Of a DNA stretch of 61,970 nt, positions 36,059 through 58,660 are shown one piece after another. The notes under the pieces are model-generated. The model was not told where the DNA came from. It worked only from the letters and a program-made list of their open reading frames with translations, and searched no databases. The stretch's first letter is position 1, and the number at the start of each line of letters is the position of its first letter. A program made the position numbers and the translations under genes. Source of the DNA: Rhizaria sp. SCN 62-66 (taxonomy: Eukaryota); contig MEDY01000151.1 in NCBI GenBank assembly GCA_001724265.1, positions 1-61,970 on the forward strand. Reading direction: 5' to 3'.

Positions 36059-39000
36059 TTAGCGTGCCGCTGTTGGTTTCGGGAACGCCTCGTTCACGAT
36101 GAGCTCGCACTCCTCCTTGAGGTCTTCTTCACTCAGCGTGCGTTGGAGCCGCATCCTGTGTTTCGTGACCGCGATGGCACTGCCGACGCCGTGGTTGAAG
36201 AACACAGAGTGCACTGTCCCGCTCATGCACAAGTTGACGAGCAGTCGCGGCGGCGACTGGAACAGGCCCAGCAGTGACCGCAGCAGCAGCCACGGACTCA
36301 GCCGCAGCCAAATGCCCTCCAAGAACGCCCACGGCATTGCATGTGTCCACAAGAACGTTCCCCAGCCCTCTGACGTCGCCGCCAACTCCAGCGCTGCAGA
36401 CGCTGCCGCCACAGATGCTGTCGCCTCTGTCGCATTCACTACAGTCGCGGACACTGCTGCAACAGACGCTGCTGCGACAGACGCTCCCGCAGAGCCCGCA
36501 GTGGGTGCGATGGAGGCTGCGGCGGCGGCCCAGGGGCTGGCCACAAAGTTGGGGACCGCGGCGAGAAAGGCCCACGCTTCCGCGCCGTCAAACAGGCGTC
36601 GGGGGTCGGCTAGACAGCGCATCGGCCAGAGTGCGGCGTCGACCGCGTCCGTCAGCGCCGCCGGCAGCAGCGGCGTCGCCAGCTCAGCCGCCGCAGCCCC
36701 CTCAGCCGCAAAAGCCGGCGTGTCGAGGTACGCGGCGAGCGTGGCGCGCACAGTGAGAAGGAAGATCGCGTTGGGAATGACGCGGCGCGCGAGCTCGTCG
36801 TTGTCGTGTTCGCTCAGCGGCAGGAGCCCCCACTTGAGCGCGCGCGGCGCCGTGCACGGCGATTGCACAATCAGGGCGTGCAGCGAGGGACCAACAACGG
36901 CGGCCATCAGCACGGGCGCCATTACGGCCCACGATGACAGCGGCGCGCCGAGGAGCGCGAGACAGATGAGCACGGTCGACAGCGCGCCCGCTACGATGAC
37001 GACGGGGGCGTAGGACCAGGTCGGGAAGAGCCGGCGGCGCTCGGGCGCGGCGGAGAGATGCACTGTGGCAAACAAGAAGAAGAGCGCGACACCGACTGCG
37101 AGCTGCAGCAGCGGCGGCAAGTGGTAGAGGTCGTGGCAGTGCGCGTACCCGAGAGCGACCGTGGGCACAAACACCGCTGCGTGTAGAGCGCGCGGAAACG
37201 GATACATGACCCGCGCGGGCAGAGTTAGATCAGCGCAGAGTGGGAACGGCGCAAGCGGGCGCCGCACTTCAGTAGCGAGCAACAGCGTCGCAGGGTAGTT
37301 GTTGTCGGCACTGCAGGTGAGCGAAACCCGCGACAGCGTCTGCGTCGACTTCGGCTGCGCCGTCGGGTCGACGAGCCCTTCTTGCTTGCGCAGCACCTCT
37401 GCCATCGTCTGGGGATCCATGCCCATCACGTCGGGCGCTGAGGGGCCCGCGCGCCTGTGCAGCCACACCACCACGGCGCCCAGCAGCGTGCCGCAGTGCA
37501 GGAGCCAGAATGGCAGCATCACGAAGAAGAAGCACACTGGCCCGCGCACGCCCGTGACACCGTGGAGGATACGGGAGTGCAGGATGAAGTGATCGAGGAA
37601 CGGGTTCGTCGCCGCGACTTGCGGGAGGCGTCGCATGTGCTCGACTAGCGTCATGCCAGTCCATTTCAACTCCGGCGCCGCGGTCAACAGCGCTCTGGCG
37701 CGCGGGGCGAAGCTGCGCGCGGGCAGCATCGTCGCGGCGGGCAGCGTCACACTGGCGCGGACCCACCCGCGCGGCAGCGGCGGCTCTGCGGACGCGGGCG
37801 CAAGCGCGCGCGGGGTCAGCGCGGTCTCGGTGAGAAACGGAGGCACGGCGGCCCCGAGGCGCGGCACAGTGACGGACACGACGACTGCCGCGCACGGTAC
37901 TCGAGGCACGTGCAGCTGTAAGCGAGGAGCAACACCACCAGCAGCAGCAGCCGCAACAGCAGCGGAGTCAGCCTTTGCAGCGGCCCGGGAAGGAAAGAGC
38001 TCTGCGGCGGCAGCGGCAACTGCGGCGTCGTGCACGGGCACATCCGCGTCGTCCACAGGCACAATCCCCGCGTCTTGGCGGCAGTCACCCGGCCGCATGC
38101 CCCAGCGCAACGCCTGGTGCGCGCGGCGCAGCGCGGCCATTTCGCACGTGAGCCCGCTGCGCCTCCCGCCGCCTCCGCGCAGCGCGTTGGCGATGCCCTC
38201 CGTGGCAACCGCGTTGCAGAACGCACCCGCGGCGGCGGAGGCGTCTCCTGCAGCCAGACGGAATCGCCGTTTGTTGCGAGCCGTGTCGTTGCGGTTGTAG
38301 TGTCCTTCGTTGACGTCCGCCCACGCGTGCGCCTGCAGCGCCGTGCCCAGCGCGGACTGCCACGGGTAAGCGCCCGCAATGCGCGCCGTTTCAGTCTCGG
38401 ACTCCGAGTCAAACTCCGGCCCGGCGCCCTCGTCCTCGCAGTCAGCGGCCTCAGCCCCAAAGGCGTCCGCGCCGGCGTCAGTTTCGCAGCGGCCTCCGCG
38501 AAGACGCGGCACGGCGCCGGGTGCGGGCGCGCTGATGGCCGCGCAGGCTTCGTCGCCCGCGCCGGCCAGCGCCCACGGCAGGCCGCCGGTACCTGTGGCC
38601 ACGTGTGTGCCGGCGGATGGCACGTATAGCGCCGCAAGCAGACCGGGCGCGCACGGAAGCCGGTGGATAAACTCGCGCCGCCGCATGTGGAAGTCACCCA
38701 ACACAGTGTTGTTGAACGGTACCGGTTGCAAGAGCTTGTACGCTGCGTCGCCGCGCCATGACTTCATGTGTCTCTTGGCGACTTCGACGAGGCGGTTGCG
38801 CTCGAAGACGGTCTAGGCCTCAGCAGCCATGGCGAAAGCGCGTGCACTCGCAGCCTTCGCGGCAGCATGCATCCGCAGCCTGAGACGCAAGTGGACGTCA
38901 ACCACGGAGCGCTGGTACTGCCGCTTGGCGCGATTGCGACGCACGTTGCTGGCGTTGTTGTACACTTCTGCGGCGGACTCATCGCTCGTACTGCTGAGTG

Positions 39001-42000
39001 TCGCTTCACCGTCGTCATCATCGCTCGACTCCTCGCCAGCGCGCGGCGCCCGCCGGGCGGGACCGCCACCGCCGCGGTTCGCGCGAGGCCTCGCAGGCGC
39101 ATCGGAGTCAGGCTCGGTGTCATCACCACTATCGGCGAGCTAAGACTGCTTCTGCTTCTGCATTGGCTTGCGGCGCAGCGCGCGCTGTTCGCGCGTATAC
39201 GCGGCTGCGGCGGCGGTGGGGTCAAGCGGCGCCCACCCGCCCTCGCGGTGCGCAACCAGGCGGCGCAACGCGCGTGTCTCGGCCGCGGTGAAGAGGCTGA
39301 GTGCAACAGACTCGTTATCACGCGCCGCACGTGACGCAGCCGTCACAGCGGCCCGCGCGGCGCAGAAGCGCGCCAAATGAGTTTGCGCAGGCAACGGCGC
39401 GCCAGGCGGGCCCCGTGTAAGCACGCGTGGTCGGGAGAACGCGTGCATCTCGCGCACAAGCCGGTACGTCGCGTAGGCACCGAAGTGCGCGGCCGTGGTC
39501 ACGCGAGACCACGCGTCCCGAGCCGCAATCATAGTGCACTGGAGTACAGTGGGCTTAGGAAGCGTTATTTTCTCTGTCTCTTCGTCAGTACTACTTTGGT
39601 CCTCGGGACTCAGTGAGTTTTTGGCACTGGTCTTTGGCAATGATGAAGCACGCATAGTTCGTCCCCTGCAATGCTGGTTTGCTGGATTCTTCGTTGCAAT
39701 CGCACAGTTGTTGGCCGGCAAAGCATCACTACTTGTCGCCATCGCTGTGTTGCAGCTCGCATTGGCATGCGCCGCCAATTCGCAGTCAAAACCCTCCGGC
39801 AGCGGCATCCCCTGCGTGACTGCAGCAAGCTCAGCCGCCGTCATCGCGCCGAACCGGATCAGCGGCAGCAGGTCGTGCAGCTCCAGCCGCACCAGCGCGG
39901 GGTCCGTGTCGTCGAGCCCGTACGCGCGCAGACGGAAGCGGCCCCAGCGCACCACGGCCTGGAACAGCGCGAACTCGCTCCCGCAGTTGAGCTCGTCGCA
40001 CACCAAAAAGCGCCGCAGCGCGGAGCGGGATAGCGCAAGGAACAGGGGCTGCGCCATCGCGGTTCCAAAGCTCACCAGCGCGCGCGACGAGCGCTCGTTG
40101 AACAGACGCAGCCGCTTGTGCCTCTTTTGCTCCTCACTGAGCTGCTTAGGCTTGGAGTCGCGCTGAGGAATCGACTCGTCGCCGTCGTCCGCTGACTCCG
40201 GGTCCGACGGGACAGGTCGGTACGCAAGCGCGTGGGGGCCCGAAACCACTGAATCTGACTCCGCGGCCGTGAGCGCCAGCGCCGCCGCGGCGCAAGCCTT
40301 GGCGGCGCTCTCGGGGACCCCACGGGCCGCGAGCTCCTCGCTCTCCATGAGCTCGCGGATCGACGTCAGCGCAGGCGTGCTATCACCCGCTGCGCCATTC
40401 GCGTTGCGAGTGTGACTACCTCTGGCGTTGCTCCCGCTGGCGCTGCTGTCAAAGAGCTTGTTCCGCGCATCAGCGACCGCGCGCGCGATGGCCTTCGTGG
40501 CGCGCTCGTCCACGGGAACTGGCAGCGGCAGGGACGCCGCAAACGCGGCCTCCAGCGCCGCCTCGGCACGCCGGTGCGCGAACGCCGCATCGGGCGCGGG
40601 ACACCCGTCTGCGCCTGCGCTTGCGCCTCCGCGCGTGTCCTTGACCCTGGCCTTTGCCTCGGCGTCAAGAAACCCTGCCGCAGATGAGAGGCACAAGTAC
40701 CGGTAGAACTCCCCGGTCACCGACTGCACCGCGGCGGCCGCAGCGCCGTCAGAGAGCGCGGCGACGTCGGCCACCGGCAGCACCACAGTGCGCGTCGACG
40801 CGGTGCTGGGTCCGCACTCCACCGTGGCGCGCGAGATGGTCGCGGTGCACAGGGGCTGCGCCATCGACGCCGCAGCGTCGGCGACTGAGGGCGCAATTGC
40901 GCGGTGCGCCGCTGCTGAGAGCTCGGTGCACGCGGCAAACTCAGCTGCCTTAAGCTTCTCAGCTTTAAGATTGTCAGCCTTAATCTGATCAGCCTTCTTC
41001 TTATCAGCCTTAGTCTTCGCACCCTTGGGCTTCGCAGTTTTGGGCTCATCAGTATTGGGCAAGGCGAAATTCTCTGCATCGTTCGGTGTGTTAGCTGGTA
41101 CGCTTGATTGGCCGAGACCAGAGACAGGCGGAAATGGAGTCTCGTCGCAGTAGCGGTCGGTGACCTGCCCACGGTCGCAGTCGCCGGTCCAGACGCTGTT
41201 GCCGTCGCCGCTGTCACCGCTGTGACCGCGTGCATCGTGGCCACACGTCCTACACTTCTTATCCGCCGCGTGTGTGTGCGGTAATATTCTATCTCCATTG
41301 CATTGATCATCATCATCGTCGTAGTCGTCGTCGTCGTCGCCGCAGACGGGGCAGCCCAGCACATAGGGCAGCAACGCCGTGTCCGGATGCGCGGCCACGG
41401 CAAGCCTGCGCTCCGGCGTCAGCCACGAGAGGCCCGCGGCGTCGGAGCGACTCGTGCCCGCCGCGCGCGCGACGGCCGCCGCCACGGCCACGGCGAGCGC
41501 AGCCGCGGGGGTGCGCGCGGGAACCGCGGGCACGGGCGCGAGCGCGGGCGGGCACGGCGGGCCAATAAACGCCGACTGCGCAGCCACTAGACTCGCGTCA
41601 GGCGCGACGGCACTCAGGGCATCAGATTTGGCGCAACTGCTGCTCGATGCGAGGCTGCTGAGTGTGCTGAGTGTGCTGAGTGTATAGAGGGCGTTGTACG
41701 CGTGCGAGCGAATACGACGGGGGTCTGAGAGAAGCTCAAGCCCGGGCGCCGGGACAAAGTTGGGCGGCGCGAATGACGGGCGCGACACGCCGGTGTGCGC
41801 GTATGGCGCGAGAGACGGGTGCGCACAGAGACTGGGGAGCGCGCGGGCCAGGAACAACTCCGTGGCCGCCGCGCGTCCGCCGGCGACGGCTGTGGCGGGC
41901 GCGCTGGGAGACGCGTCGGGGATGTCACAGAGGGACTTAAGCGGCGCGGGGGCAAGCAACGCAGCCGTGTCGCAGGCGAGTAGAGCAGACGGCAGCGGTG

Positions 42001-42154
42001 CTGCGCCAGCGGAAGGGAGCGGCGGCTGTTGTGATAAAGGGATTGATTTGAGGTCGAGACATTCATAAGCAGCGGGCTCCGATGCAGTCAAAGCCACAGG
42101 CTACACAACCTCGGGAGCAAACGAAAAAGAGAAGGTGTCGCTCTATGACCACAT
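36059..42154 (-). CDS. ~2030-aa BACK-domain protein with C-terminal multi-pass membrane region; single reading frame with in-frame TAG codons
   Basis: ORFs 39140-42097 and 36059-38767 share a frame, and the gap holds only TAGs at 39140-39142 and 38813-38815. Two more TAGs (42101-42103, 42143-42145) lead to an ATG at 42154 (start less certain). BACK-like FLALSRSALRRFLVCDELNCGSEFALFQAVVRW...LLPLIRFGAMTAAEL; hydrophobic TM segments near the C-terminus; TAA stop. Confidence 0.7.
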
Positions 42155-43158
42155 CGTGGGACGGTACAAGGTATAATTGCGAAATCTGACAACAACGAGA
42201 TATGCAAAGAGGAGACAGATGAGGTGGAGTGGTGAGTGAGGTGGTGCGCAAAGAAAGTTGTGATACCGGTGTTATTTGAGCATAGTGTGAGATATTTAAA
42301 CAAGATAAAGAGTAAATCACAACGTTGAATTACAAAACTGTGAAATATTTCGTATTGACAATAATTCCGTGCTTCTAACGGGTTGAGGAGTTGCGGCCAC
42401 AAATTTTGGAGAGGGCGAATGGAGAGGGCGTAGACAGACGGGCGATTTGTGGTGGGAACACATTTTGGCGCACACAAGCAAGCAAGGTCGTGCAAGACGA
42501 GGCGATTTTTCATATAACGTTATTCTAGTGAATACTTTGTTATGTATGCGAGATTACTTAAACAATAACCATCGCGCTTTTCTTCGAGAGATCACATGTG
42601 CATGTATCACATGTGCTTGTGTCGTTGCGAGATGAGCATCACAGCGCACCGCAGTCAAGTCAGTCTAGTCATTCAGCCTCCATCGTGAATCAGAGAGGAG
42701 GGAGAGGCTCGAGGCCTCTAACGCAACGTCACTGCTATCACTTCCGCTGATACAACTGCCACCGACACTGCCGCCGCCGTTACCGCCGTCCGCCTGGTCG
42801 CCAAACTAGGGAGTATAAGATAGATACAAAGCCACAGCGCGCTCGAGAGTGAGAGAACTGTGGGGGAGATTAGAAGCAAGTCGTTTGTTGATTCGTGTTG
42901 ATCCGACACAAGTCGAGTCAACGTGGTGATTTAAGTCAAAATGGGGTGAGTTGAGTTGAGTAATGCGAGAGTCGAATCGAGAGTGTTGTGTTTGCATGAT
43001 GGAGTCGTGCGGTGAGTCAAGTTGCGATGTGAATCAAGTCAAGTCAAATCGAGTCGAGTCGACTCGTGCTGTACAAAGGAGGAATTGATTCGACTCGAGC
43101 CCGATCTATAAGCAGAGACAGCGAGAGAAATAGAGTCTACGTGTGCGAACGTGTCGTG

Positions 43159-46100
43159 TTAAACACTGGAGATGACTTGCATTTCCTTCACCGGTTGCGC
43201 ACAAATAAAGCACTGTTTACACGCCGATCCACAATCCTGACACATCACATGCCCACACGGCACAATCACAACCTTAATATCGTTCTCATAGCAAATCTGG
43301 CACATGAGCCGCTCCTTGGCCTGCGTGGCATCGTCCACAGCGGCCTTAAGGCGAGATTGCCAGGACGGCTCCTTGCGCTCCACGCGCAGCGGCTGCACGC
43401 GCACGTGCGGGTCGTATTCGTTTTTAAGCAGCATATCCATCACGCGTGAGATGTCGCTGCACGAGCGCGCGCGGCCCGCGTTATACAACCGCTCGAGGGT
43501 CTGCAAGATATGCCCGCGCTCGTACCCGAATTCGAGCAGCTTATCCAGCAGAGACGTGTCGAACGGGTATACTTCGGTCATATCGCTGTTGTTATCGTTG
43601 CCGTTGCTGTTGCCGCTGCAGCTCTTGTTGCCGTTGGCACACGCACCACGCGTGCCATGAGTACCCTGTGTTCCCGTGGAACCGGTTGCGGTGGACGACG
43701 CAGAGCGGCCGCCGCACACGGAGCCCGAGCAGACGTGGTTCTTCACGCTCACACTGCCACCGCCGCTGCCCGCAGCAGCTGCAGAGGACGAGGACGACGA
43801 GGCAGAGGACGAGGACGCGGAGGAGGCAGACGCGGAGGCAGGTGCGCCGACCTTGGCCAGCGCGGCGCGGGCGCAGGCGTCTCCGCCCTGCGCCGCCGCT
43901 TCGGTCGCCGCGGCAAGTGCTTGCTCTGAGTCATCGTACCCGCGTCCGTCGCAGTGCGAGCAGGGCGGCATGTGCATCGCCAGCCAGCAGGAGCGCGCGC
44001 GGGCGCGGTAGCTGGCGATCTCGTCCTTGGAGCTCGACGCAGTCAGCGGACATCCACGCGGGGCAGACGTCGTACTCGCGGAGCCAGAGCCAGAGCTAGA
44101 GCCGGGGCTGGACGGGGAGGCGGTGGAGGCGAGCAGACGGGCGCGGGGCGCGTCGAGCGTGTCGCAGCCGTGCTCGCGGCACAGGCACCGGTGCGGGTTG
44201 GACGTCTCGTCAGAACCAGAGCCAGAGCCGGAGCTAGAACCGGGTAACGCGGTACTGTTGGTATCCGCGAAAGCGGCCGTCTGTTGTTGTTGTAGTAGTA
44301 GCTGTTGTTGAGCATCAGGCGCAGCGGCAGCGGCAGCGGCAGCGTCAGCGGCGGCGGCGGCGGCCTCGGCGGCGACGGCGGCGGCGTCTTGCGCGAGCAG
44401 GGGGATGATGGCGGCGACATCGCGCGCCTGGCACCGCTGCATCGCATGCGCCATTTCGCGCAACAGCGCAACGACAATGACCGTAGGCACCGTCGGCGGC
44501 AGGACCTGGAGCAGCGCCGCGCCGGGCAGGGCGGACTCGCCGGCCGCGCCCTCAGCGCTGTCGTCGTCGTCGGCGTCGTCGTAGGTCGCGATGAGGCCGC
44601 CCGGCAGTGCGCTATCGGCCGCGAGAGCAGCCAGAGCAAGCGGGCGACGCAAAGTCGTCTCGCCATAGACATTCGTGGCGTCCGCAGTCTTGACAGCAGC
44701 ATTAGCCTGAGTATCGTTAACACCCTCGCCGTCGGCGGGGGTACCACGGCCACGGCGGCCCTCTTGGCCGCCCTCGCCGTCGTCCGAAGCCTTCCTCGTC
44801 GCCTCGTTGTTGTTGTTGCTGTTGCTGGACTCTGAGTGGGACTCGCCGGCGGCGGCGTCGGCGGCGTCGGCGGCGGCGCGCGCGGCGGCCATCCTGCGCG
44901 CATACGCGTGCGCCGCGGGGCTCGGCGCCGCGGCCGCCGTGGACGCCGTAAAGAGGCTCTCGGCCAGCGTCTCCGCCCACAGGCGCGTAGCGCACGGAGA
45001 CAGCGCACCGCGGCCGCCGGGGCAGGAGTTCATCGCCTCGGCCTCAGCGGCGGCCAGCGCGGCGTCGCTAGACGTGTTGTTCGTGCTGTTGCTGTTAATG
45101 CTGCTGCTGCTGCTGCTGCTGCTGGCGGCGCCGCCGGGCGCGGGGACGGAGATGGAGATCCCCGATAGCGTGGAGGCCGCCGAGGCGTTAGACTGTGTGG
45201 AGCGGGACGAGGACGTCGACAATGCAGACGCCGCGGACGCGATCGAGTCGGCTGAGTGGTCGCGACTCGCGACACTCGGCGGCAAAGCGGTCACTGCAGG
45301 CGCAGCGGCCGCACTGGCGCTCTTGCTCTTGCTGTTGTTGCTGTTGCTCTCGTCCTGTGCTTGAGGCGCGGGCGCGGACCGGCGCGAAAAGAGCGCGGCC
45401 GCAACGGCGGAGACTTCGGCGAGAACGCGTGACGCGCGCGAGGCAGAGGTACGCAGTGAGCAGGGACTTAGCGACTCGATCGCAGACTTGGCTGAGTCAG
45501 CAGAAGAAGAGACTGCGTCGTCACTCGTCTCGAGCACGTCAGTCTCACCACTCCCAGCAGCCTCAGTCTCGGGCGCGGACGCAGGAACGGTCGCGGCCGC
45601 AGCAGAGGTGGCGGCAGCGGCTTGTTTTTGGTGGCAGTGGCTGTTGACGAGAGCGCGGAAGCGTGCGAAAGCACCCCATCCGCTGCTGGCCGCCGCCACA
45701 GGCGCGGGCGCAGCGACAGGAGGAGGAGCAGCAGCAGCAGTGGTGGAGTTGTTGGTCGAGAGTTCGACAGCAGGCGCAGGCGCGGGTGCGGCTCCTTCCT
45801 CTTCCTCCTCAGCAGCGCGCTTGCCACCAAGCCCATCACCAGCCTCGCTCTTGGCCTCGGCCGCAGTGTCGTTCTCGGGATCCCCCTCGGTCATGGTCGT
45901 CACAGAGGCCACGCTGACGCCGGCGACCGCGCCCGCGCTGCGCTTGTCCGCGGCGAACACAAGGTCCCGCAGAGTATCGATCGCGGCCACGGTGACGCAC
46001 TGGAGCGACTTGCGCTGCTGCGCGCGCAGCGCCGCTACGGCCCCCGCGTAGCCACACGCGGCCCCGGGCGCGAACAAGCCCTTGATAGCGGGGACAACCG

Positions 46101-48408
46101 CGGCGGCGGCGGCGGGGCGCGGCGGGGCAGGGGCGGGGATGCGGCAGCGCCTAAAGTCGGCGATGCAGCGTGTGCCGTCATATCCGCCGTAGAGATACAG
46201 CGTATCACCCAGGGCGGCGAGACGGCAATACCCGCGGGGCTCGGGGCGGAACTTGCGCTCATCCCACTCACCAGAGCCGGCGGAACCCGCGGAGTTCTCG
46301 GCGGGGGAAGCGACTGAGCGGATGCCCTCGGCCGACGCCGACAGAGAGAGCGAGGACGACGGCAGCGCAGCACGCGTACCAGCGCCGGAACCCGTGGTGC
46401 CCGCGGAGGGCTTCACTGCGGAACGCATGGGTCCGCAGGGCAGCTCGTGCCACGTCATAGTGCTTAAGTCGAGCCGCCAGAAGTCGTCTGCGTGCGACGT
46501 GGTGTTGGTGTACCCGCCGAAGACGTAGAGCGACCCGCGGAGCACGGCTGCCGCCGCGCCGCAGCGGGACGGGGGCGCGGAGGCCAGGTCAGCCGCGGTC
46601 ACGCCGCCCGCACCCGGCTCGCTGTCAGAACCACCAGGGGCGGCGGCGGCGGCGGCAGCGGCGGCGGCGGCGGCGACGGCGGCGCAGGCCGAGTAGCCCT
46701 GTCCCGGCCGCTTGCTCTTGTCCTGCTCCCCCGATGGGGCCGGCGGGGCGAGCTTGGTGGAGACCGTGTGCCAGGTGTTCCACTTCGGGTCGTAGCAGTG
46801 GAGTCGCGGGTCAAACGCGCCGCCCGGCAGCGAGCCGAAGAGAGTGTAGAGCCGGCCACCGTGCGCAAATGCCGCGTGGTACGCAGTCGGGTGTGGCGCA
46901 GGAGCCAGGGCGCGCCAGCGTCGTGTGCGGAGGCTGAAGGCGTGCGCCTGGGCCAGGAACGTGCCTGAGCGGTCGCAACCGCCGACAATGTACATTTCGT
47001 CGTTGAGCAGTGTCGCCGAGTGGCCGTAGCGCGCCGCCGAGGGGCCGACGCATAGTGAGAAGTCGGGGGACGACTGCTGCGGCGTGGTGATGCATTCCCA
47101 CTGCAGCGTCGCCAGGTCCAACGCGAAGACCACGGGCGCGTCGAGGCGGGTGGAGCCGCCGAAGGCGTACATGCGGCCCTCGAACACCACCGAGGCGTGG
47201 AGGTACATGTTCGGCGGCTCCTGGCGACTGCCGCCGCCGCAGACAAGCTGGTGCCACCGACCCGCAGTCGCCGTGTCGCTCGGCGCACTGCTGGCGTCAT
47301 TGCTGTTGTTGTTGTTGTTGTTGTTGTTGCTGTTGTTGTTGTTGCTGCTTGCGCTGTTGCTGTTGGGGCTCGGGGTGAAGCGGTAGACGCGGTTTGAGCG
47401 GATCTTGTCGTCGGAGAATCCGCCAAACATATAGAGGCAGCCGGAGCCCGGGGCGCGCGCCACGACCCCACTGGTGCCGCCGTTGCCGCCGTTGAGCTTT
47501 GCGTCGGCAGCGGAGAGCGAGGTGTCTTCGTATGCTTCGAGACTAAAGTAGGTCAGAGGACCAGGGTTCAAGGCCTCATCAGCAGCCGCAGCGTTGTGGC
47601 CAGTAGCGTTGGCGCAGTTGCTGCTGTTGTTGACAGACTGGCGGCGGCGCGCGGAGAGCCCGGAGAGATCAATGGGTTCCCATTGATACATCCGCTCACC
47701 GTCAACCTCAGTGGCAGCGGCAGCGGCAGCGTTGGCGTCAGAGCCAGAGCCAGAGGCGGCGGTAGAGGCGGTGGCGGCGGCGTCAGGACGTTGGGGGACA
47801 GCATGCGCAGATGTAGTAGTTAACGACCTCGTGGGTTGCGCAGATGTCGCAGCATTGGCGTTTGAGGAGGGCCGGGCGCTGGGAGGGTGAGTGCTTGTCG
47901 CGGTCGCCGCGGCCGCGATTCGGGGCGCGACAACAGACTGCAGCGACAACGAAGAGGACGACGACGAAGACGACGAAGAGGAGGACGAGGACGAGGATGT
48001 TGCTGTTGTGGTAAGGCTTAAAGTTGCGGAGATCGGCGCCGCGACGGCGGTGGTGGAGGCGGCGAGAGAGGCGGGGGAATTGGAATACTGGTGAACATCG
48101 TTGGCGTCGGCGTGGCGCGCGTTGGTAACGGCAACGACGGCGGCCTCGTGCGGGTCACCCACGGCCGCGGCGCGCACAGGTGGCGGCGCAAGGCGAGACC
48201 GTTCAGAGCGCAAGGCGGCGGTGGCGGAGGCTGGGGCAGCAGAGGATGACGAAGAGGAGCCAGAGAGCGAGCGTGACGGCTCAGAGGGCTGGAGCAGCGC
48301 GGCCGGGGACGGCGCAATGTTGGACAGCGGCGCAAGCAGCGCGCGCGGCTGTGGGTGGACAACCGAGGCGAGGGACCCGCTGAGAAGCGGGGGTTGGCTG
48401 GAGGCCAT
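43159..48408 (-). CDS. Kelch-repeat protein with UBA-like segment and C-terminal C3HC4 RING (probable E3 ubiquitin ligase)
   Basis: About six kelch repeats (LYMFGG, MYAFGG, MYIVGG, LYTLFG, LYVFGG, LYLYGG); LLDKLLEFGYERGHILQTL; terminal CQICYENDIKVVIVPCGHVMCQDCGSACKQCFIC; TAA stop. Confidence 0.88.
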   Translation of the reverse strand: MASSQPPLLSGSLASVVHPQPRALLAPLSNIAPSPAALLQPSEPSRSLSGSSSSSSAAPASATAALRSERSRLAPPPVRAAAVGDPHEAAVVAVTNARHADANDVHQYSNSPASLAASTTAVAAPISATLSLTTTATSSSSSSSSSSSSSSSSLSLQSVVAPRIAAAATATSTHPPSARPSSNANAATSAQPTRSLTTTSAHAVPQRPDAAATASTAASGSGSDANAAAAAATEVDGERMYQWEPIDLSGLSARRRQSVNNSSNCANATGHNAAAADEALNPGPLTYFSLEAYEDTSLSAADAKLNGGNGGTSGVVARAPGSGCLYMFGGFSDDKIRSNRVYRFTPSPNSNSASSNNNNSNNNNNNNNSNDASSAPSDTATAGRWHQLVCGGGSRQEPPNMYLHASVVFEGRMYAFGGSTRLDAPVVFALDLATLQWECITTPQQSSPDFSLCVGPSAARYGHSATLLNDEMYIVGGCDRSGTFLAQAHAFSLRTRRWRALAPAPHPTAYHAAFAHGGRLYTLFGSLPGGAFDPRLHCYDPKWNTWHTVSTKLAPPAPSGEQDKSKRPGQGYSACAAVAAAAAAAAAAAAPGGSDSEPGAGGVTAADLASAPPSRCGAAAAVLRGSLYVFGGYTNTTSHADDFWRLDLSTMTWHELPCGPMRSAVKPSAGTTGSGAGTRAALPSSSLSLSASAEGIRSVASPAENSAGSAGSGEWDERKFRPEPRGYCRLAALGDTLYLYGGYDGTRCIADFRRCRIPAPAPPRPAAAAAVVPAIKGLFAPGAACGYAGAVAALRAQQRKSLQCVTVAAIDTLRDLVFAADKRSAGAVAGVSVASVTTMTEGDPENDTAAEAKSEAGDGLGGKRAAEEEEEGAAPAPAPAVELSTNNSTTAAAAPPPVAAPAPVAAASSGWGAFARFRALVNSHCHQKQAAAATSAAAATVPASAPETEAAGSGETDVLETSDDAVSSSADSAKSAIESLSPCSLRTSASRASRVLAEVSAVAAALFSRRSAPAPQAQDESNSNNSKSKSASAAAAPAVTALPPSVASRDHSADSIASAASALSTSSSRSTQSNASAASTLSGISISVPAPGGAASSSSSSSSINSNSTNNTSSDAALAAAEAEAMNSCPGGRGALSPCATRLWAETLAESLFTASTAAAAPSPAAHAYARRMAAARAAADAADAAAGESHSESSNSNNNNEATRKASDDGEGGQEGRRGRGTPADGEGVNDTQANAAVKTADATNVYGETTLRRPLALAALAADSALPGGLIATYDDADDDDSAEGAAGESALPGAALLQVLPPTVPTVIVVALLREMAHAMQRCQARDVAAIIPLLAQDAAAVAAEAAAAAADAAAAAAAAPDAQQQLLLQQQQTAAFADTNSTALPGSSSGSGSGSDETSNPHRCLCREHGCDTLDAPRARLLASTASPSSPGSSSGSGSASTTSAPRGCPLTASSSKDEIASYRARARSCWLAMHMPPCSHCDGRGYDDSEQALAAATEAAAQGGDACARAALAKVGAPASASASSASSSSASSSSSSAAAAGSGGGSVSVKNHVCSGSVCGGRSASSTATGSTGTQGTHGTRGACANGNKSCSGNSNGNDNNSDMTEVYPFDTSLLDKLLEFGYERGHILQTLERLYNAGRARSCSDISRVMDMLLKNEYDPHVRVQPLRVERKEPSWQSRLKAAVDDATQAKERLMCQICYENDIKVVIVPCGHVMCQDCGSACKQCFICAQPVKEMQVISSV

Positions 48409-49323
48409 GGAGCCCGGGGGGGTAAGGCGGAACCGGCTTGCTGGGTTGGCGGGAAAAAAGAAGTTAACACAAGCAACGGGACGGTCTGCAGAGAAAACAT
48501 GAACAACGTGGGAGATGACGATGGGTGAGTGCGATGAAGGCGTGAACGAGGCGTCGGATGCGGAGCAATCACGGATGTTAGACGTCGTTTAAGGGCAGGC
48601 GTCAACCCGTTGCTGCCAGGTCGATTAGAAAGCCCAGTCGCGCGTCAACAGTGACATGAAATATCAAAACGGAAAGAACGAAAAAACATCTGCTTGCACT
48701 CCGAAGATTTGTGTCATCGCCAGGGCTCCTTCGAACACATTCTCACTTTGAAGCACGGTGAAGAAGGGACCAAGCCCGCAGGACCACAAACGAAACTTGG
48801 TCACCTTTCGCGCGCAAGCAAATCAAAACTGAGCTCATGTGGAAGAAGTCACGACACTTTTAGCATGTTTCTTCCCTTTTCAGTATTGCATTACCATAGA
48901 CCACAATGTTTGTACGCAATCCGATGACTTCTCAAGGTGGCATTTCTTCTCGAACTGATCGACCACAAACGCTTTTTGCGTCATGCCGAGTCGCGTGACA
49001 CATTCACGGAGTCTGTGGCCATGCATTCCTTCTGCACAACAGGGGGATGTTTTTGCGATTCATTAGATTTATTGATTTGCCGTATGCATTTTGTTAACGC
49101 TGTTTTGTTTTGGCAGAATGTTTCTTCAAAGTTTAAGTGCGCGGCTGAAAACTGAATTCGTGGTCAGATTGGCTTTTTGCGTCCTAAGGATTCTCAATAA
49201 AGTGTATTTTGCTCCAGAGTTCATAATCAAGCTCTATTTCTATTAATTCCATCGCTAGGTATCACACTGGCCGCGCCAGCAGCGCGTCTCTGCCTTAAGT
49301 CTCACTTTACTCACTTACTCCCT

Positions 49324-51833
49324 TCACTCATCATCGTCATCATCGTCATCATCCGACTCGAACGCGAACGAGCCGCCCGCGGCAGGCGCCGGCGGCCCCG
49401 GGCGCGTCCCCGCGGGCGGGCCCGGACGTGCCGCAGCCGCCGAAGGCCCCGGCCGCGCGCCAGCAGCGGGAGCAGCAGCAGCAGCAGCAACATGAGGGCG
49501 GCCAACGACAATCGGCGCGACACGTGATTGCTGCTGCACAGGAGCCGCAGCCAGAGGAGCCGCAGCAGCAGCGGCGACGGGCGCCGCGCCGTTGGTGTAG
49601 ATGAACGTGGCCTTGGCGACCGCGGCCGCAGCGGCTTCCTCGTCGTCCTCTCGGATCACGCGCGCCTTCCCAGCGCCGGCGCCGCGACTGCCGGCGACTA
49701 TGCGCGCCAGCGCCGCGTCTTCGACAGCCGAGGTCCCAGTCGCAGCGCGCGCGCGGGCAGCGGCAGCGGCCGCCGCAGCGGAGGCAGTGGCAGGAGCTGC
49801 GGTGACGCTGGACATGTCGTCATCATCGTCGTCGTCGCTGTCGCCGACCTTGAAGCTCCCCTTGCCAGATTTTCCGGCTTGACTGCCCGCCTTGGCTTCC
49901 GCCTTGGCCTTGGCCTTCGCGGCGGCCGCGCTGGCGGCGGGGCGGGTGTACGCGTCGTCGTCGTCGTCGCTGTCGGCGGCGTTGCGGCGATTCCGGCGGC
50001 GTCCCGCAACCTCGGGCACTGCTGTTGCAGCGGCGGCAGCGCTCTTTGACTTCGAGTGCATCGCCGCCGCAGCAGCAACGTTGTCTTCGTCGCTGTCGTC
50101 GCCGCGTTTGCTGTTGCCCTTTTTGCCGCCCTTCTTGCCGCCCTTCTTGGTGTTCGCCGCATTGCCACCGCTGTTGTTGTTGTTCTTGATCGCAGCGGAG
50201 ATGTCATCGTCGATGCGCAGAGACAGCAGCGAGTCCAACAGCGCACGCTCACGCGCCCCGTCGTCATCGTCATCGTCGTCGCCCAGCCGACCCTTGCCCT
50301 TCCCCTTGCCCTTGCCCTTCCCTTTACCGCCCGCGCGCGCCGTGGCCGCAGCCAGGATCGCGCTGTCATGGGTCGAGTCGAGCCCGACGTCAATCCTCGC
50401 AGATGCAGCTGCAACAGAGGCTGCGGCAGCAGCGGTCGTGGCGGTGCGGAGAGGCATGTCGTACTCGTCGTCGTCCTCATTCTCATCGTCGTCGCCGTCG
50501 TTATGAGTGATAACGGGCTTCTTACCGGCCTTGGCAGACTTGCCGCCCTTCTTCTTGGCCGCGGCCATAGCAGCGGCAGCGGCGGCGGCAGCAGAGGTTT
50601 CGCCATCATCGTCGTCATCGTCGGTGTCTTCGAAAGCGAAACGGTTCTTGTTGCTGTTGGTGCGCGCAAATGACGTCATCTCTTCTTCCTCGTCTTCCTC
50701 TTCCTCCTCTTGCTCCTCCTCCTCCTCCTCCTCCTCCTCGTCATCATCATCGTCGTCGTCATCATCGCTTTTAGACGACTTGGCACCCTTAGCTGCCTTG
50801 CCCTTACCCTTCGCGCCCGCGGCCAGCTGCGCCTGCGCCTGTGCCTTGGCCCTCGCGCTGGCGCCTGCGCTCGCGCCGCTGACCGCCGCGGCGACACCGG
50901 CGTCGTCGCCGTCAATACGCGCATCCACGATCTCCACGCTGACGTCGGCCGCCGCAACGCCCGCAGCCTGCTGCGCCTCGGTCAGCGCGGCCGCCAGCGC
51001 GCGGTACCGCTCCGGCTCCAGCACCAGCACGCTCTCCCAGAGCCCGGCGCCGCGGTGCGCGGACTCGACCGCCAGCGCCAGCGGCAGCGCGGCGGCCGCG
51101 AGGGCGTCGCCGGCGCGGGCGGGCGCGGTCACGCGGACGCGCATTGGCGCGCGTTGGATGGGGATCAGCGTCTTGAGCTGCGGAATGAGCTCCAGCGCAA
51201 GCTGCTTGGCCGTGCGGCGCTCGGGCAGCGAGACGTGGAGCTGTTCCAGGGCCTTTGCGACGAGACGAGGCGGGAGAGGAAGACGGGTCTCGGAGTTGAT
51301 GCACATCGAGACGATGAGGCTGACGACCTCGCGCTCGCGCTTTTCGCGGTCGTGCGCGCGCTCGCGGTCGGACACCTGCATCTTGCCCTTGTCGAGGATG
51401 AGGCGGCACACTTCGGCCGTGTCGCGGGTGCCGAAAGCCTCTTGCAGGTCCTTGCCAGAGGCGACTTGGCCCTTGGAGACGTTGCGGTACACAGTGTCGG
51501 ACTGAAGCACGTTGGACATGTCCTTCTCACTGCGCAAGTAACAAAAAGCGATGGGGTTTTATGTAAGATACGAGATAAAGCGAAAGAGCGTGAGTTTGCG
51601 GGTAAGATGGATGTGCAGGGGTAGAGACTACAAGATGGTCAGAAGCCGAGGGTGACGACAGCAGAGAGAAGGATACAGGATGAGCTAGGGGCGACGTACA
51701 CTTTACGGCGCCAGTCAAGGACCTTGTTGGGAAAACAGGCAATCTCGAAACGTTGGCCACCAACGTCGTAGCGCACAAACACAATGTTTGTGAGGCGCAC
51801 TTGACCAATGGGCTGCTTGACGCCACTACTCAT
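49324..51833 (-). CDS. SBDS: Ribosome maturation factor SBDS/Sdo1 with long low-complexity C-terminal extension; exons 51833-51700 and 51529-49324
   Basis: QPIGQVRLTNIVFVRY..GQRFEIACFPNKV, EKDMSNVLQSDTVYRNVSKGQVA, AKQLALELIPQLK..IPIQRAPMR. Intron 51530-51699 (GTACGT...GCGCAG, phase 2); TGA stop. Confidence 0.93.
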
Positions 51834-53272: not shown

Positions 53273-54556
53273 ATGCTCCCCGCCCAGATCAAGATCATTA
53301 AGGACACCATCCCCATCCTCGAGAAGGGTGGTGAGGGCCTTGTGAAGCATTTCTACGGCCTTCTCATGAAGCACGACAACGTTCGCCCCCTGTTCAACCA
53401 GACCCACCAGCGCTCCGGCGCCCAGCCCCGCGCTCTGGCCAACTCGATCCTGTGCTATGCGCGCAACATCGACACCCTGGAGAACCTCGGCCCCCTTGCT
53501 GCGCAGATTGTCAACAAGCACGTCGCCTTCCAGATCATGCCCGACCACTACCCGATCGTCGGCACCTGCCTCCTCCGCTCCATCCGCGAGGTCCTTGGCG
53601 AGGCCACCGCCACCGACGAGGTCCTCCAGGCCTGGGGCGCGGCGTACCTCCAGCTCGCCGACATCCTCATCGCCGCTGAGGCTGACGCCTATGCCGCCAT
53701 CGCCGCCGCCCCCGGTGGCTGGTCCGGCCGCCGCCGCTTCCGTGTCGCGAGCAAGACCGCCGCCAACGCCGCTGGTGATGTCGTCACCTTCGAGCTCGCG
53801 CCCGTCGACGGCGGTCCCGTCCTCCGCGCCAAGCCTGGCCAGTACCTCACCATCGTTGCCGACTCCGTCCCCGGCCAGCCCGACTCTGTCCGCCGCAACT
53901 ACTCTCTCTCTCGCTCTGCCGACGGCTCCAGCTACTGCATCACCGTCAAGCGTCTTAACGGCGGCGCTCTCTCCGGCTGGCTCCACGACTCCGTGGCCGT
54001 CGGAGATGAGCTCGACATCTTCCCCCCCGCCGGCGAGTTCGTCCTCGAGACCCCCGCCGCGGCGTCCAGCGGCTGCCCCTTCACCGGCGCCGGCGCCACC
54101 TCAGGCTCCCCCCGCGGCCTGCTCCTTGTCTCGGCCGGCGTCGGCATCACCCCCACGATGGCGATGCTCGAGGCCGCCACCGCGCCCTCGGCGCCGGCCC
54201 GCCAGACGTGCTTCATGCACTACACTCAGGACGCGCGCACCCACGCCTTCGCCGACCGCGTCGCCGCCATCGCCAACGAGGCCGCCGGCGCGTCCCGCAA
54301 CGGTAGCAACGTCTCGCTCTTCACTGCCTACACCGCGCCCGACGCGACGTCCACCGCGGGCGCCACCGCGACGGGCCGCATCAACGCCGAGCACATCGCC
54401 GCCGCCATCGCTGCCGCCGGCGGCGCCGACAACGTCGACGTCTACGTGCTCGGCCCCACTGGCTTCATGAAGACTGCGCGCGAGCTGCTCTTCGCCGCGG
54501 GTGTCCCCCAGGCCAACGTTAAGCACGAGTTCTTCGGCCCCAGCGAGGCGATCTAA
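53273..54556 (+). CDS. hmp: Flavohemoglobin (nitric oxide dioxygenase)
   Basis: Globin domain (HFYGLL, QPRALANSI, IVNKHVAF, HYPIVGTCLL, AWGAAYLQLADILI), FAD-binding domain (KPGQYL, RNYSLS, ITVKR, LSGWLHD), NAD-binding domain (SAGVGITP, GPTGFM, HEFFGP); intronless CDS; TAA stop. Confidence 0.96.
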   Translation: MLPAQIKIIKDTIPILEKGGEGLVKHFYGLLMKHDNVRPLFNQTHQRSGAQPRALANSILCYARNIDTLENLGPLAAQIVNKHVAFQIMPDHYPIVGTCLLRSIREVLGEATATDEVLQAWGAAYLQLADILIAAEADAYAAIAAAPGGWSGRRRFRVASKTAANAAGDVVTFELAPVDGGPVLRAKPGQYLTIVADSVPGQPDSVRRNYSLSRSADGSSYCITVKRLNGGALSGWLHDSVAVGDELDIFPPAGEFVLETPAAASSGCPFTGAGATSGSPRGLLLVSAGVGITPTMAMLEAATAPSAPARQTCFMHYTQDARTHAFADRVAAIANEAAGASRNGSNVSLFTAYTAPDATSTAGATATGRINAEHIAAAIAAAGGADNVDVYVLGPTGFMKTARELLFAAGVPQANVKHEFFGPSEAI

Positions 54557-55321
54557 GTGCGCTCTCTTTAAGCGCTCGAAGTGAGCTTTAAGCGTGCTCT
54601 AATTTAAGTGCGCTCTAGGCGCGCGCTCTTTCTAAGCGTGCGAGCGAACGAACAGTGACTTATCATCATATTTGTCGAAAATGATGTCGGCTCGGTGTTA
54701 TTGTTGACGCTGTTTGTTGTCGACGTTGCCGTTTTGTTGTTTGTTGAACCTTGAAACCTGCCGATGCCGCCCCTGTTCGTGCGTTGCCGCGCTTCCGTCA
54801 CTTCTACCTGCACGCACCCCTGTCGCTGCCTGGTGCTTTCGCCGTACCGCTTTGTGCGGTGAGCCGACAGTGATTTTTCTTTGCCGCAAGAATTGGTGAT
54901 GGTGATACTATATATTTGGAACCTCATGACAATCCCCAACCGGACCCCCCTCTGTGGGTGATTCCCCACCCTCCTCTGTGTGAAGTAACTTCCGAGAGTG
55001 AGGGCCTAAGATCCACTTCAATCTTGTCTGTTATATCCCTATTTGCACAAATACCAGCGAGAATACATATTTCATTCTGTAAACAACGTTAGTTAAAACT
55101 TGAACTTAATGAGTCAACAACATATTGTTTGATTTAAAGCTTTATTCACAGCACGTATCAATCAAATGCACTACACTCTCCAATTTCGCCGCTGTCGACG
55201 CATCTCACGCCCCTCCGCGTCGTGACGATCTGGCTCCGAGCTGTGTGCCACATTGCCTCGTTGAAATCGTCTGAATACTTTTGTGTAATATTTCCTTGCT
55301 TTACTCTGTTGATTCATATTT

Positions 55322-58300
55322 ATGCCATCCTCTGAATCTTTGTTTCTCGCGCAGATTGGCTTTCGGTCAAAGCCAACGTTTTTTTCCGTATCTCGCTCGA
55401 CCGGGATGCCCTTCTTCCCGGCCCTGGGCCACTCCGGGAGCTCGATGGGAGCCTCAGGTCCCTCTACGTCGGGATTTCTCAGAAGCTCAATGGGCTTTCC
55501 TCTCGCGGACTCTTCTCTGCGACACGATGGTGACGCGCAATCGACCCTAGCGCTGCTCACCTCTCACGACCCTCTGTTGTCGTCCTCCCCGTCCTCGCAG
55601 CAGTACCTGGTTCACAACAGCACCGCTGAGCTTCCCCCATCTCTCTCCAACACACTCTCAGGATCGTTTAACCACAGTCTTGGCTTCACACCGTTTTCAC
55701 ACGCACTCTCGCTGCCCCAACCTCAGCCGCAGCCGTCAGTGAGTCACTTTTCCCCCACAGCCTCTGGGCCACCGCATATGCTTGCGCCGCTTCCCGTGCG
55801 TTTGGACAAGCTGCCCTTGTCGCATTCGCCCTCGCCCTCAGTCGCCTCTACGGCCACAGGCACCGCGTCCGCGTCCGAGCACCCCACGCCCCCACAGCCC
55901 CCGCCAAGAGTCGTTCCTCGACTTGCCGTTGCTTCAGATACAGTCACCTCTGACCCTGCGTTTGGCCGATACGGTGGCGCCACTGGGACTCATGGTGATG
56001 CGGGGGCCTCGCAGTGGTATCCGGGTTAGCAGCCATATTCGTGGCCGCAAGTTTCAGCCTGCAGCGAAAGTCGTCCGAGCGACTGCTACAGCAGCAGCTC
56101 ACAGTGCAACTCTGGCGGCGGCACTGCTGATCTCGGCACGGCGTCAGTACACCAAAACAGTTCCGATACCGGTGGATATATCGGTGCATATAGCGGGGGT
56201 CAGAGGACTGCTACGGCATTTTCTGATGCAATGGTCGCTGCAGACGCTGCTATTGCTGCAGGGGCCGCCATTTCCGCTGTCTCCACAATGCCCATCGCTG
56301 TCGCAGCCTCTACAGCATCACACACAGAACCACCGTGCCGCGTTGCGCGCACGGACTCACGAGCAGCGATGGCCGCTTCTATGGGCCCGGACTCGGGGAC
56401 GGCGACTGTAGCTGTTACTGCACATAGTAGCAATGCTCCAGCGATGGCAATGGAGCTTGGAACAGGTGCGACTGGTAGGCGCGGCGGCGGCCGCGGCGGC
56501 CGCGGGCACAGCGGTGGCGGTGGCGGCGGCGGCGGCGGCAACGGCAGCGGCAGTGACGGCGGAGGACGGCGCGGCGCTGGTTCTGGCTCTGGTGCGCGCA
56601 ACCCAGCGTCAACTACCACGAGCAGCGACGAGGACGAGGACGAGGACAACGGTGAAGCAACTAGCGCGAGCCAGGGCAACAGCAGCAGCAGCGGTGCTGG
56701 CAGTGACAGCGATGATAACGACAATGTAAGTCTCACCACACGTGGCCCCAGCAGAGGCCCAGGCAGCGCGGCTACCGGGATTGTCTCCGGCCCTGCTCAC
56801 GGTCACTACGCCTACGGTCACTACGCCTACGGTCACTATGCCCATGGTCACTATGCCCACAGCCAGCAGAGTTAGCTCAGTCAGCCTGCGGCTTCAGTGA
56901 CGAGCCGCGGCCGCTTGCGCCGTCTCAAACGGCCTGCCGACGCAAACATGAGCACCGTTGCAAACGACGGTGGCAGTGATAGTGAGGTGTCCGGAAGTCA
57001 AGCCGCGTCAGGAAGTCAAGCCGCGTCCGGAAGTCAAGCCGCATTGAGTCGCCGCGATCACATGCATCCCACGACGCGCACACGTCTCGCAAGCTCCCAC
57101 CCTTCCTCCCGCTCAGAGCAATGCCGACCGCAGCGGCAGCAACAACAGCAACAGGAGCAGCAGCCGCGGCCGCTGGGACAGACGATGGTGCTCGGGGCAA
57201 GTCGTGCGTTTAGTGGTGACCGCAGCGGCAGTGACCACGACGGCACCGAGGACACCACTGGCTATGGGTATGACAACAACGTGATCCCGCAAGAGCCCGG
57301 TTACTTTGCGCCTCTACAATATGCCCAACAGCATCAGCAACAACAGTCTCCGCAAAAGCAAAACCAGCAACTGCCCCCTCAAAGTCAAAACGTCACCCGC
57401 AACCATGGTAGCTCGTCTGCGCACGTGTTCAGCAGCAGTCTCTCCGGGCACGGCTATGACAGCCGTGCGGGGTATTCACTGCCGCCGCCCGCCTTGCCCT
57501 TGCCACTTACGCTTCCGCAGCCACAGCCGCCGTATCCGCAACCCCCGTAGCAGCAGTGGCGGGTGCAGCCTCGCGCAGACAGTGCTGACATGAACACTGC
57601 TGCACCTGCACCTGTATCTGTGGCTGTGCCTTCGACGGGGACTGCAACATTGGCAACTGCTCCTGCCGTGGCTGCAGCTGCAGCGACTGCAGCTGCAGCG
57701 GCGTCAACGTCTGTCGCAGCGGGTGGCAGCAGTTCGCGCAGCAGCGCGGGTCTGCGCCCACCGAAGCGAGCCAACAACGCGTACATGTATTACTGCCGTC
57801 TGACACGGCCTGAGCTGCGGCGCGCACACCCAGCACTGCCGTTCGCCGAGATTGGCGCGCGCTTGGGCCGCATGTGGCAGTCGCTGCCCGCGGCCGAGCG
57901 CGCAGAGTTCGAAGAGATGGCGCGCGTCGACCAAGAGCGGTTTGCGCGAGAGGCGGCGTCGCACGCAGCGATGGCCAAGCTTGGCGCATCGCTCATGTCT
58001 CAGCAACAGCAACAGCAACAGCAACAACAGACTGAGGCTGGCGCAACAACTCCGAGTCCGGGGCCGAGTGCGAACATGGCGAACGCTACTCCCATTGCTG
58101 CAGCAGCAGCTGCTGCTGCTGCCGCGGGCCACAGCGGCGGCTACGGCGGCCACGGCGGTGCGTGCGTGTGCGCGTGTGCATGCGGCGCTCGCAGTCCGCA
58201 ACCGCAGCTCCCGCCTCCCGGTCACAGTCCGCGTCACCGCCACAGCTTTGCTCACGGACACTCACAGTCAGAACTATTGCAGTCGCGGTCGATGCCACCA

Positions 58301-58660
58301 TCACCGGCGCTCCCGCCGCCGCTGCTCCCACCAACTCTCGACTCATCACGGAGCGGCGGTGGCGGCAGCGATGCGCACCGGCACAGACAGCGCCACAGCG
58401 GAGACTATAGTCACAACTTTGGTCAGGGCGACAGTCAGCGGGGCACGCGTGTGGCTGAGTCGCATGTGCACGAGCTACAGAAGCAAGTGCTCTTGCTGCG
58501 CCAACAACTTGCGCATGCGCAGGCACAACTGCAGGCACAGACACACGCACATACGCAGACATAGACGCATATGCAGATGCACGTGCCGCCGCGCCTCTAT
58601 GCGAGCCGTGACGACGATGATACAGAGACGGTAGACTCCGGCGCTTTATTTATTAAGTGA
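55322..58660 (+). CDS. ~1110-aa HMG-box protein; single reading frame with four in-frame TAG codons
   Basis: ORFs 55322, 56231, 56897 and 57563 are all in one frame, separated only by TAG at 56027, 56873, 57548 and 58562; the frame ends at TGA 58658-58660. HMG box PKRANNAYMYYCRLTRPELRRAHPALPFAEIGARLGRMWQSLPAAERAEFEEMARVDQERFARE (~57761-57952). Start uncertain. Confidence 0.75.
56801..56860 (+). repeat. 15-nt coding tandem repeat x4 (GHYAY/GHYAH)
   Basis: ggtcactacgcctac ggtcactacgcctac ggtcactatgcccat ggtcactatgcccac. Confidence 0.85.
56991..57042 (+). repeat. 18-nt coding tandem repeat x3 (SGSQAA)
   Basis: ggaagtcaagccgcgtc(a/c) repeated three times, the last copy partial. Confidence 0.8.

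Follow-up and report, generated by a model that had tools for sequence, protein, structure and literature searches.

In-frame TAG codons confined to two of twelve genes on a GC-rich protist contig: a possible UAG-only change of the genetic code

UAG and UAA nearly always change meaning together, and described cases in which UAG alone has been reassigned are few (PMC5304391, PMC11687900, PMC10553269). In Iotanema spirale, which is a fornicate and not a rhizarian, UAG encodes Gln while UAA and UGA serve as stops; 204 in-frame UAG codons occur there in 126 mostly conserved genes, many at conserved Gln positions, and genes end in UAA (104) or UGA (15) (PMC5304391). In the rhizarian exLh, UAG is read as Leu, with 384 UAG codons in 71 genes, mostly at conserved Leu positions, and 56 ends in UAA, 15 in UGA and none in UAG (PMC5304391). 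UAG-specific reassignments are also described in phyllopharyngean ciliates and in an oligohymenophorean ciliate (PMC11687900, PMC10553269). Amoeboaphelidium was considered as another UAG-only case and set aside, as it reassigns both UAA and UAG (PMC5304391). Here we describe contig MEDY01000151.1, deposited as Rhizaria sp. SCN 62-66, over positions 1 to 61,970 (the whole stretch analyzed, hereafter the window). Two unrelated genes on its opposite strands, which we call gene A and gene B, contain eight in-frame TAG codons and not a single in-frame TAA or TGA in 3,143 codons. The two genes and their TAGs are as follows.

36059..42154, minus strand: gene A, a single 2031-codon open frame that contains four in-frame TAGs and ends in TAA
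42143..42145, minus strand: TAG at codon 4 of gene A (less firm)
42101..42103, minus strand: TAG at codon 18 of gene A (less firm)
39140..39142, minus strand: TAG at codon 1005 of gene A, in the context QKQKQS-TAG-LADSG; open reading frame (ORF) P0004 ends here
38816..39139, minus strand: stretch of 108 codons separating the two internal TAGs of gene A, coding-like, GC 0.68
38813..38815, minus strand: TAG at codon 1114 of gene A, within a predicted long helix (low confidence)
55322..58660, plus strand: gene B, a single 1112-codon open frame that contains four in-frame TAGs and ends in TGA
56027..56029, plus strand: TAG at codon 236 of gene B, WYPG-TAG-QPYSW; ORF P0125 ends here
56873..56875, plus strand: TAG at codon 518 of gene B, SQQS-TAG-LSQ
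57548..57550, plus strand: TAG at codon 743 of gene B, YPQPP-TAG-QQW
57761..57964, plus strand: HMG box of gene B, residues 814-881 (Pfam PF00505, E 4.8e-15), without TAG
58562..58564, plus strand: TAG at codon 1081 of gene B, occupying one slot of a CAN-ACN repeat; 31 further codons precede the TGA

The presence of these codons in frame is real and is not an effect of chance, introns or assembly. All eight were found in frame at the positions that the original prediction had given, and its remark that none falls in a conserved domain holds for the HMG box. Gene B encodes a low-complexity, Gln-rich HMG-box protein, and gene A shows a weak BACK-domain match (residues 680-742) and a hydrophobic C-terminal half. 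The TAGs at codons 4 and 18 of gene A are less firm because they rest on ATG 42154 as the start codon. This ATG lies upstream of both; in the translation, read by eye, the next in-frame Met comes only near residue 437, and inspection by eye showed no upstream exon that would give the gene an alternative start. The 13 codons between these two 5' TAGs score as coding, at a level reached by 247 of 27,268 spacer windows. A contig from a poly(A) RNA library (42118-42552) covers the AT-rich stretch upstream of the ATG and stops 25 nucleotides (nt) past TAG 42143; it may represent an extended 5' leader of gene A, the 3' end of the transcript from the Kelch-RING gene, or DNA carried over into the library. 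In a single-sequence AlphaFold model of gene A residues 960-1330, the mean predicted local distance difference test score (pLDDT) was 47, and the helix that spans codon 1114 (pLDDT about 51-57) is too weakly predicted to use.

Several lines of evidence bear on whether each gene is one frame or several. The off frames hold 32 and 62 TAA and TGA codons in gene A, and 8 and 26 in gene B. Frame 0 is clean, as originally claimed, without TAA, TGA or frameshift, and none of the eight TAGs is spanned by an AT-rich intron candidate (an in-frame GT..AG segment below 50% GC). The stretches between TAGs have a GC content of 0.61-0.69, compared to 0.40-0.50 in all 12 spacers between the long frames of the window, which measure 375-2,770 nt. 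A codon-usage score trained on the other genes was highest in frame 0 in every stretch between TAGs. For the 108-codon stretch of gene A the score per codon was 0.30 in frame versus -0.34 and -0.83 off frame, and its score was reached by none of 20,428 spacer windows and by 19 of 1,905 off-frame or antisense genic windows. The gene B stretches were likewise set apart from spacers, with their scores reached by 0 to 26 windows of 7,592-13,098, but were poorly separated from off-frame genic sequence, where 4-23% of windows reach the score. The frame of gene B therefore rests on the HMG match and the lack of TAA and TGA. Overall this evidence favors one reading frame per gene.

Gene ends in the window point in the same direction. 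All 12 complete genes terminate in TAA (8) or TGA (4), never in TAG, a count that agrees with the original one after two ends were corrected:

4027..4029, plus strand: TAA end of gene G1 (698-1312 + 1471-4029)
12043..12045, plus strand: TAA end of gene G2 (4488-6277 + 6420-12045)
18697..18699, plus strand: TAA end of gene G3 (12421-18699)
19960..19962, minus strand: TAA end of the TMC-domain gene
24285..24287, minus strand: TGA end of the mitochondrial-type PheRS gene
26237..26239, minus strand: TGA end of RPA2
35221..35223, plus strand: TAA end of the aspartyl protease gene
36059..36061, minus strand: TAA end of gene A
43159..43161, minus strand: TAA end of the Kelch-RING gene
49324..49326, minus strand: TGA end of the SBDS gene
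54554..54556, plus strand: TAA end of the flavohaemoglobin gene
58658..58660, plus strand: TGA end of gene B

If TAG made up 20-25% of stops, the probability of finding none among 12 ends would be about 0.03-0.07; the calculation as run, on 13 ends, gave 0.055 and 0.024. TAA is the commonest terminator (8 of 12) despite a GC content at third codon positions (GC3) of 0.62-0.92. Two candidate gene ends were rejected: the TAA at 27537 belongs to the intron of RPA2, and the TGA at 6623 does not lie in the reading frame of exon 2 of the spliced gene 4488-12045. Also rejected were 5' in-frame extensions of other genes through TAG, as these extensions proved to be AT-rich non-coding sequence. The gene models include four verified spliceosomal introns of 130-170 nt, with a GC content of 0.35-0.50:

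1313-1470: intron of gene G1
6278-6419: intron of gene G2
27422-27551, minus strand: intron of RPA2
51530-51699, minus strand: fourth verified intron

Three have a GTACG-type donor and one GTCTG, all have pyrimidine-rich 3' ends, and their removal yields clean frames. ORFs 4488-6623 and 6496-12045 thus belong to a single spliced gene with 2,471 codons, and 698-1312 is spliced to 1471-4029.

The sequence around the TAGs fits Gln. In a model of neighbor context (residues within three positions), Gln scored 9.1-9.2 nats and the next residue 2.4-3.3, with Leu at 0.5-2.1 and Trp at -2.4 and 0.6; Gln thus ranks first, in line with the Gln-favoring contexts noted earlier. A Gln lies within two residues of all four TAGs in gene B (background 0.21) and of one of the four in gene A. 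The base that follows the TAGs is C in five cases, A in three and G in none, while G follows 7 of the 12 real stops. This pattern would suit leaky termination. We give it no weight, since the same bases follow Gln codons in these genes, without significant difference.

The TAG-bounded ORFs recur in independent assemblies. P0004, which ends at TAG 39140, and P0003, which starts just after TAG 38813, are each present letter for letter in seven contigs of the public protein collection, and P0125, which ends at TAG 56027, in six (JGI/IMG, Logan, ENA). The collection holds A and B only as fragments because standard-code gene callers split them. A contig from an independent study (X5) matches window positions 58439-58629 with no differences and spans TAG 58562. 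A contig from a variant strain (X4, 54197-56451), in which about 0.4% of sites differ (about 0.4-1.7% in spacers for strains of the X4 type), covers TAG 56027, and 9 of the 10 differences listed lie elsewhere; at least one TAG is thus kept in a diverged strain. The two indels listed for gene B in the variant contig, downstream of the first two TAGs of the gene, are both 3 nt long, compared to 1, 5, 1, 1 and 1 nt for the five spacer indels listed, which is only a weak hint of translation. None of the RNA contigs listed bridges a firm TAG, and at low-complexity stretches the depth bins also include sequence of other organisms. Among the differences listed for the variant strain (X4, X6, X9), all seven in the flavohaemoglobin gene (53273-54556) and three of five in the Kelch-RING gene (43159-48408) fall at third codon positions, as does the single one in gene A (39932); gene B has one synonymous third-position difference and one His to Arg change.

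Our tentative explanation, to which we give somewhat less than an even chance, is that ribosomes in this organism translate UAG, probably as Gln, that termination relies on UAA and UGA alone, and that UAG is a rare codon which few genes tolerate. Under this explanation, UAG would not serve as a dedicated terminator but would be decoded as sense, most likely as Gln, leaving UAA and UGA as the only real stops. UAG would persist only in a few weakly constrained genes without homologues. Such a situation could reflect a young or inefficient reassignment in which a UAG-reading tRNA still competes with eRF1, and this competition would purge TAG from most genes. Translation of UAG, its identity as Gln, a genome-wide scope, a tRNA(CUA) and an altered eRF1 are all things that we infer from the pattern described. 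The original prediction of UAG as a sense codon is favored by the TAG-only stops, the coding-like stretches between them, the lack of TAG ends and the recurrence of the TAGs. Its genome-wide scope is not, with no TAG in the 11,888 codons of the other 10 gene models, and the confinement of the eight TAGs to 2 of 12 genes had gone without mention.

This confinement is the first of several points that weigh against UAG as a sense codon. In the one window studied, seven genes with conserved domains hold 207 Gln codons and no TAG. The probability that all eight TAGs would fall in genes A and B is 4.7e-6, 3.2e-6 or 5.9e-4 if they were distributed in proportion to codons, CAG or CAA, respectively, and 1e-4, 6.8e-5 or 3.8e-3 if only the six firm TAGs are counted. 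At the rate seen in A and B, the other ORFs without a Pfam family (5,301 codons) were expected to hold 10-13 TAGs and hold none. Clustering of this kind is very unlikely for a sense codon in free use. In the UAG-only lineages known so far, UAG is frequent and occurs in conserved genes (PMC5304391). In Blastocrithidia species, where all three stops are reassigned, the reassigned codons are spread non-randomly and avoided in highly expressed genes (PMC12153298), which provides a precedent for some unevenness but not to this degree. Neither gene A nor gene B has a homologue outside the organism, and consequently no TAG can be aligned to a conserved residue. A search of 1.84 billion representatives with gene A residues 850-2031 returned two matches, both the organism's own two halves of the gene, and the ESM Atlas gave no usable match to the second half of gene A. 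The gene B search, whose words came from the first 500 residues only and whose 8,000 candidates were filled by low-complexity words, found no match near full length and, among shorter matches, only the gene's own first ORF. None of nine versions of the A and B proteins in which TAG was translated as Q, W, L, E or Y had an exact entry on look-up, although one strain difference would defeat this test. The window contains no tRNA gene, no Rfam match and no eRF1 gene. Finally, a Gln-like context is equally expected from CAG-to-TAG nonsense mutation.

A more specific proposal is that the window records an early or incomplete stop-codon capture in a GC-rich wastewater protist of the stramenopile-alveolate-rhizarian (SAR) group, in which UAG is no terminator, is decoded as Gln, is costly and is kept in a few fast-evolving genes. 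We hold this to be doubtful, with clearly less than an even chance. If true, the early-capture state would be a natural intermediate step from the standard code toward complete reassignment of UAG alone, in a lineage without a known case.

The clustering of TAGs in two genes without homologues would be natural if UAG were an ordinary stop and A and B were dead genes or null alleles, inactivated not by slow neutral decay but by a targeted C-to-T process that changes CAG to TAG, for example deamination at CAG or CpA. A CAG origin matches the Gln-like context, gene B stands out among the window genes by its GC3, which is the lowest (0.62), and by its CAA share, which is the highest, and by arithmetic on codon counts a TAG-only outcome has a probability of about 0.06 if only CpA sites mutate. 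The usual signs of a decaying pseudogene fail, however. Random nonsense mutation in A and B would yield TAG as 51-54% of new stops, giving a probability of 0.004-0.007 for eight out of eight (about 0.005), and both genes retain their coding signal without a frameshift, TAA or TGA in 9.4 kb. Repeat-induced point mutation (RIP) typically leaves too much TpA and too little CpA, with TpA/ApT above 0.89 and (CpA+TpG)/(ApC+GpT) below 1.03. Gene A gives 0.60 and 1.21 and gene B 0.71 and 1.34, inside the range of the other genes, so that neither carries a RIP-type signature, which is still compatible with a light dose. Inactivation also leaves the lack of TAG among the 12 gene ends unexplained, and 6-7 contigs from several sources all carry the same TAGs, at least one of which is kept in a diverged strain. 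We therefore consider inactivated genes unlikely, though well short of negligible.

A TAG-only pattern restricted to a few genes would also be accounted for if UAG were normally a stop that is removed or bypassed in these transcripts by RNA editing or programmed readthrough. Filamentous ascomycetes provide the model for editing: their stage-specific A-to-I editing converts UAG to UGG and prefers U at position -1, so that UAG is often targeted, and in the sexual development of Fusarium graminearum it repairs 71 'pseudogenes' that carry premature stops (PMC10776026, PMC11156358, PMC4817773). In the window, the U at -1 is present by the definition of TAG, but none of the eight TAG adenosines lies in a hairpin loop of the minimum-energy fold, compared to 32% of 76 CAG controls. 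We know of no restorative UAG editing system outside ascomycetes, and the organism is not a fungus. Recoding to UGG would give Trp, whereas the context favors Gln, and with two to four sites in each gene affected, and 2 of 12 genes affected, the density is far above the fungal case. The lack of G after the TAGs, which would fit programmed readthrough, is not unusual for a Gln context. Taken together, we regard gene-specific recoding as quite improbable.

If each TAG were a true end, A and B would be rows of short genes that share one frame. A prokaryote-style gene caller did split both loci at the TAGs, and under the standard code the HMG box would lie in an ORF of about 324 codons that starts at a Met soon after TAG 57548, stops at TAG 58562 and is plausible as a protein on its own. 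However, the 'spacers' between such genes would be GC-rich (0.61-0.69) and coding-like, unlike the 12 real ones (0.40-0.50), no TAA or TGA interrupts the single frame in which all pieces lie, several of them have no ATG to start from, and these would be the only TAG-terminated genes of the window, which makes separate genes very improbable. That the TAGs are assembly or sequencing errors for CAG is scarcely credible: the window does appear to come from a metagenome assembly, but identical TAG-bounded ORFs are found in 6-7 contigs from three sources, an independent run repeats TAG 58562 exactly, and errors in 8 of the 84 CAG-type codons of A and B versus none of 324 elsewhere are implausible.

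The window is nuclear DNA of a GC-rich eukaryote, with long open frames of 60-77% GC and a GC3 of up to 0.92. Genes named by Pfam encode a TMC-domain protein, a mitochondrial-type PheRS, RNA polymerase I subunit 2 (RPA2), a pepsin-like protease, a Kelch-RING protein, SBDS, a flavohaemoglobin and a SAM synthetase; three other long genes matched no Pfam family at the cut-off, one of them having a single LpxD match well below it. The closest named matches of RPA2 are oomycete proteins (44-45% identity), and environmental proteins reach 52-73%. In two single-gene trees, the window and five environmental sequences adjoin Bigelowiella natans, the only named rhizarian in the set (support of 100 and 93 in the SH-like approximate likelihood ratio test, SH-aLRT), apart from oomycetes and Nannochloropsis. 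The organism appears to be a SAR-group protist, possibly a rhizarian. The locus is present wholly or partly in 11 of the 13 public runs listed (98-99% of the stretch in X1-X3), from seven studies of wastewater, bioreactor, activated-sludge and microbial-fuel-cell metagenomes, and the window itself seems to derive from a metagenome assembly.

Scans for related DNA returned the following. A metagenome scan for SAM synthetase gave 22 loci, none from the window organism. The best is an intron-less, mRNA-like contig of 1.6 kb (L001, positions 1-1592) whose SAM synthetase is 94% identical to that of the window and ends in TAA, an identity that indicates a close relative in another metagenome. In another (L004, 1-1318), the SAM synthetase gene of a 74%-identical relative ends in TAG. 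The translated MAT frames of the eight closest loci (L001-L008) contain no in-frame TAG. Two scans of viral contigs for more DNA of the organism or its kin found no match. The sole match of a genome-contig scan (L023, 1-21390) is eukaryote-like, unrelated to the window organism, and has 46% GC, with exon-like pieces of a eukaryotic RNA polymerase subunit separated by long non-coding gaps; it is recorded under a metagenome-assembled genome of a Nitrospirales bacterium and looks like eukaryotic DNA binned into a bacterial genome.

An unrelated feature of the window lies in RPA2 (26237-31262, minus strand). Its first exon (P0005) carries a 427-residue insert at residues 721-1147 (window 27822-29102, minus strand), between NMYQ and CQMGKQ, which is absent from a 73%-identical relative (P0006). 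The insert starts with CLSGD, contains LIGLVLGDGG, which we take to be a LAGLIDADG-like motif, and ends in Asn followed by Cys. Compared with Pfam it matched nothing even at E 10, and 8 of its 12 weak PDB matches are inteins (E 0.06-0.32). It looks like an intein with a homing endonuclease.

A further independent UAG-only case would inform how eRF1 and tRNAs separate UAG from UAA, here in a GC-rich genome where mutation pressure does not favor the loss of UAG. Full-text literature searches turned up no report of a reassigned UAG in wastewater protists or in a stramenopile, labyrinthulomycete or bicosoecid. Should UAG really be translated here, the organism may represent the ambiguous intermediate that models of code change postulate but that is seldom observed, and the extreme restriction to two genes could make the case more informative. 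As the organism recurs in the metagenomes of seven studies, material for a decisive test already exists.

The known systems each resemble the window in some respects and differ in others. Ascomycete editing likewise concerns in-frame stops, almost only TAG, in a small subset of otherwise intact genes; unlike the situation here, its product is Trp (UGG), it prefers hairpin loops, it usually acts at one or two sites per gene and it is known from ascomycetes only. In Blastocrithidia the reassigned codons are abundant and the genome is AT-rich, and the unevenness in the window is far more extreme. The ciliate cases would share with the window an uncoupling of UAG from UAA, in organisms to which the window organism is unrelated. 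With exLh the window would share a UAG-only change, and it does share more UAA than UGA ends and no UAG ends, but the neighbor context here gives Leu 0.5-2.1 against 9.1-9.2 for Gln; judging by a single-gene RPA2 tree, in which the only named rhizarian is the neighbor of the window, the two could be distantly related. From Iotanema the window differs in lineage and base composition, and in having eight TAGs in two genes without homologues and none among 207 Gln codons of conserved genes. What it has in common with Iotanema, whose assignment of UAG is that of NCBI table 15, is that only UAG would be affected, that UAA outnumbers UGA as terminator, that UAG never ends a gene and that Gln is the likely meaning.

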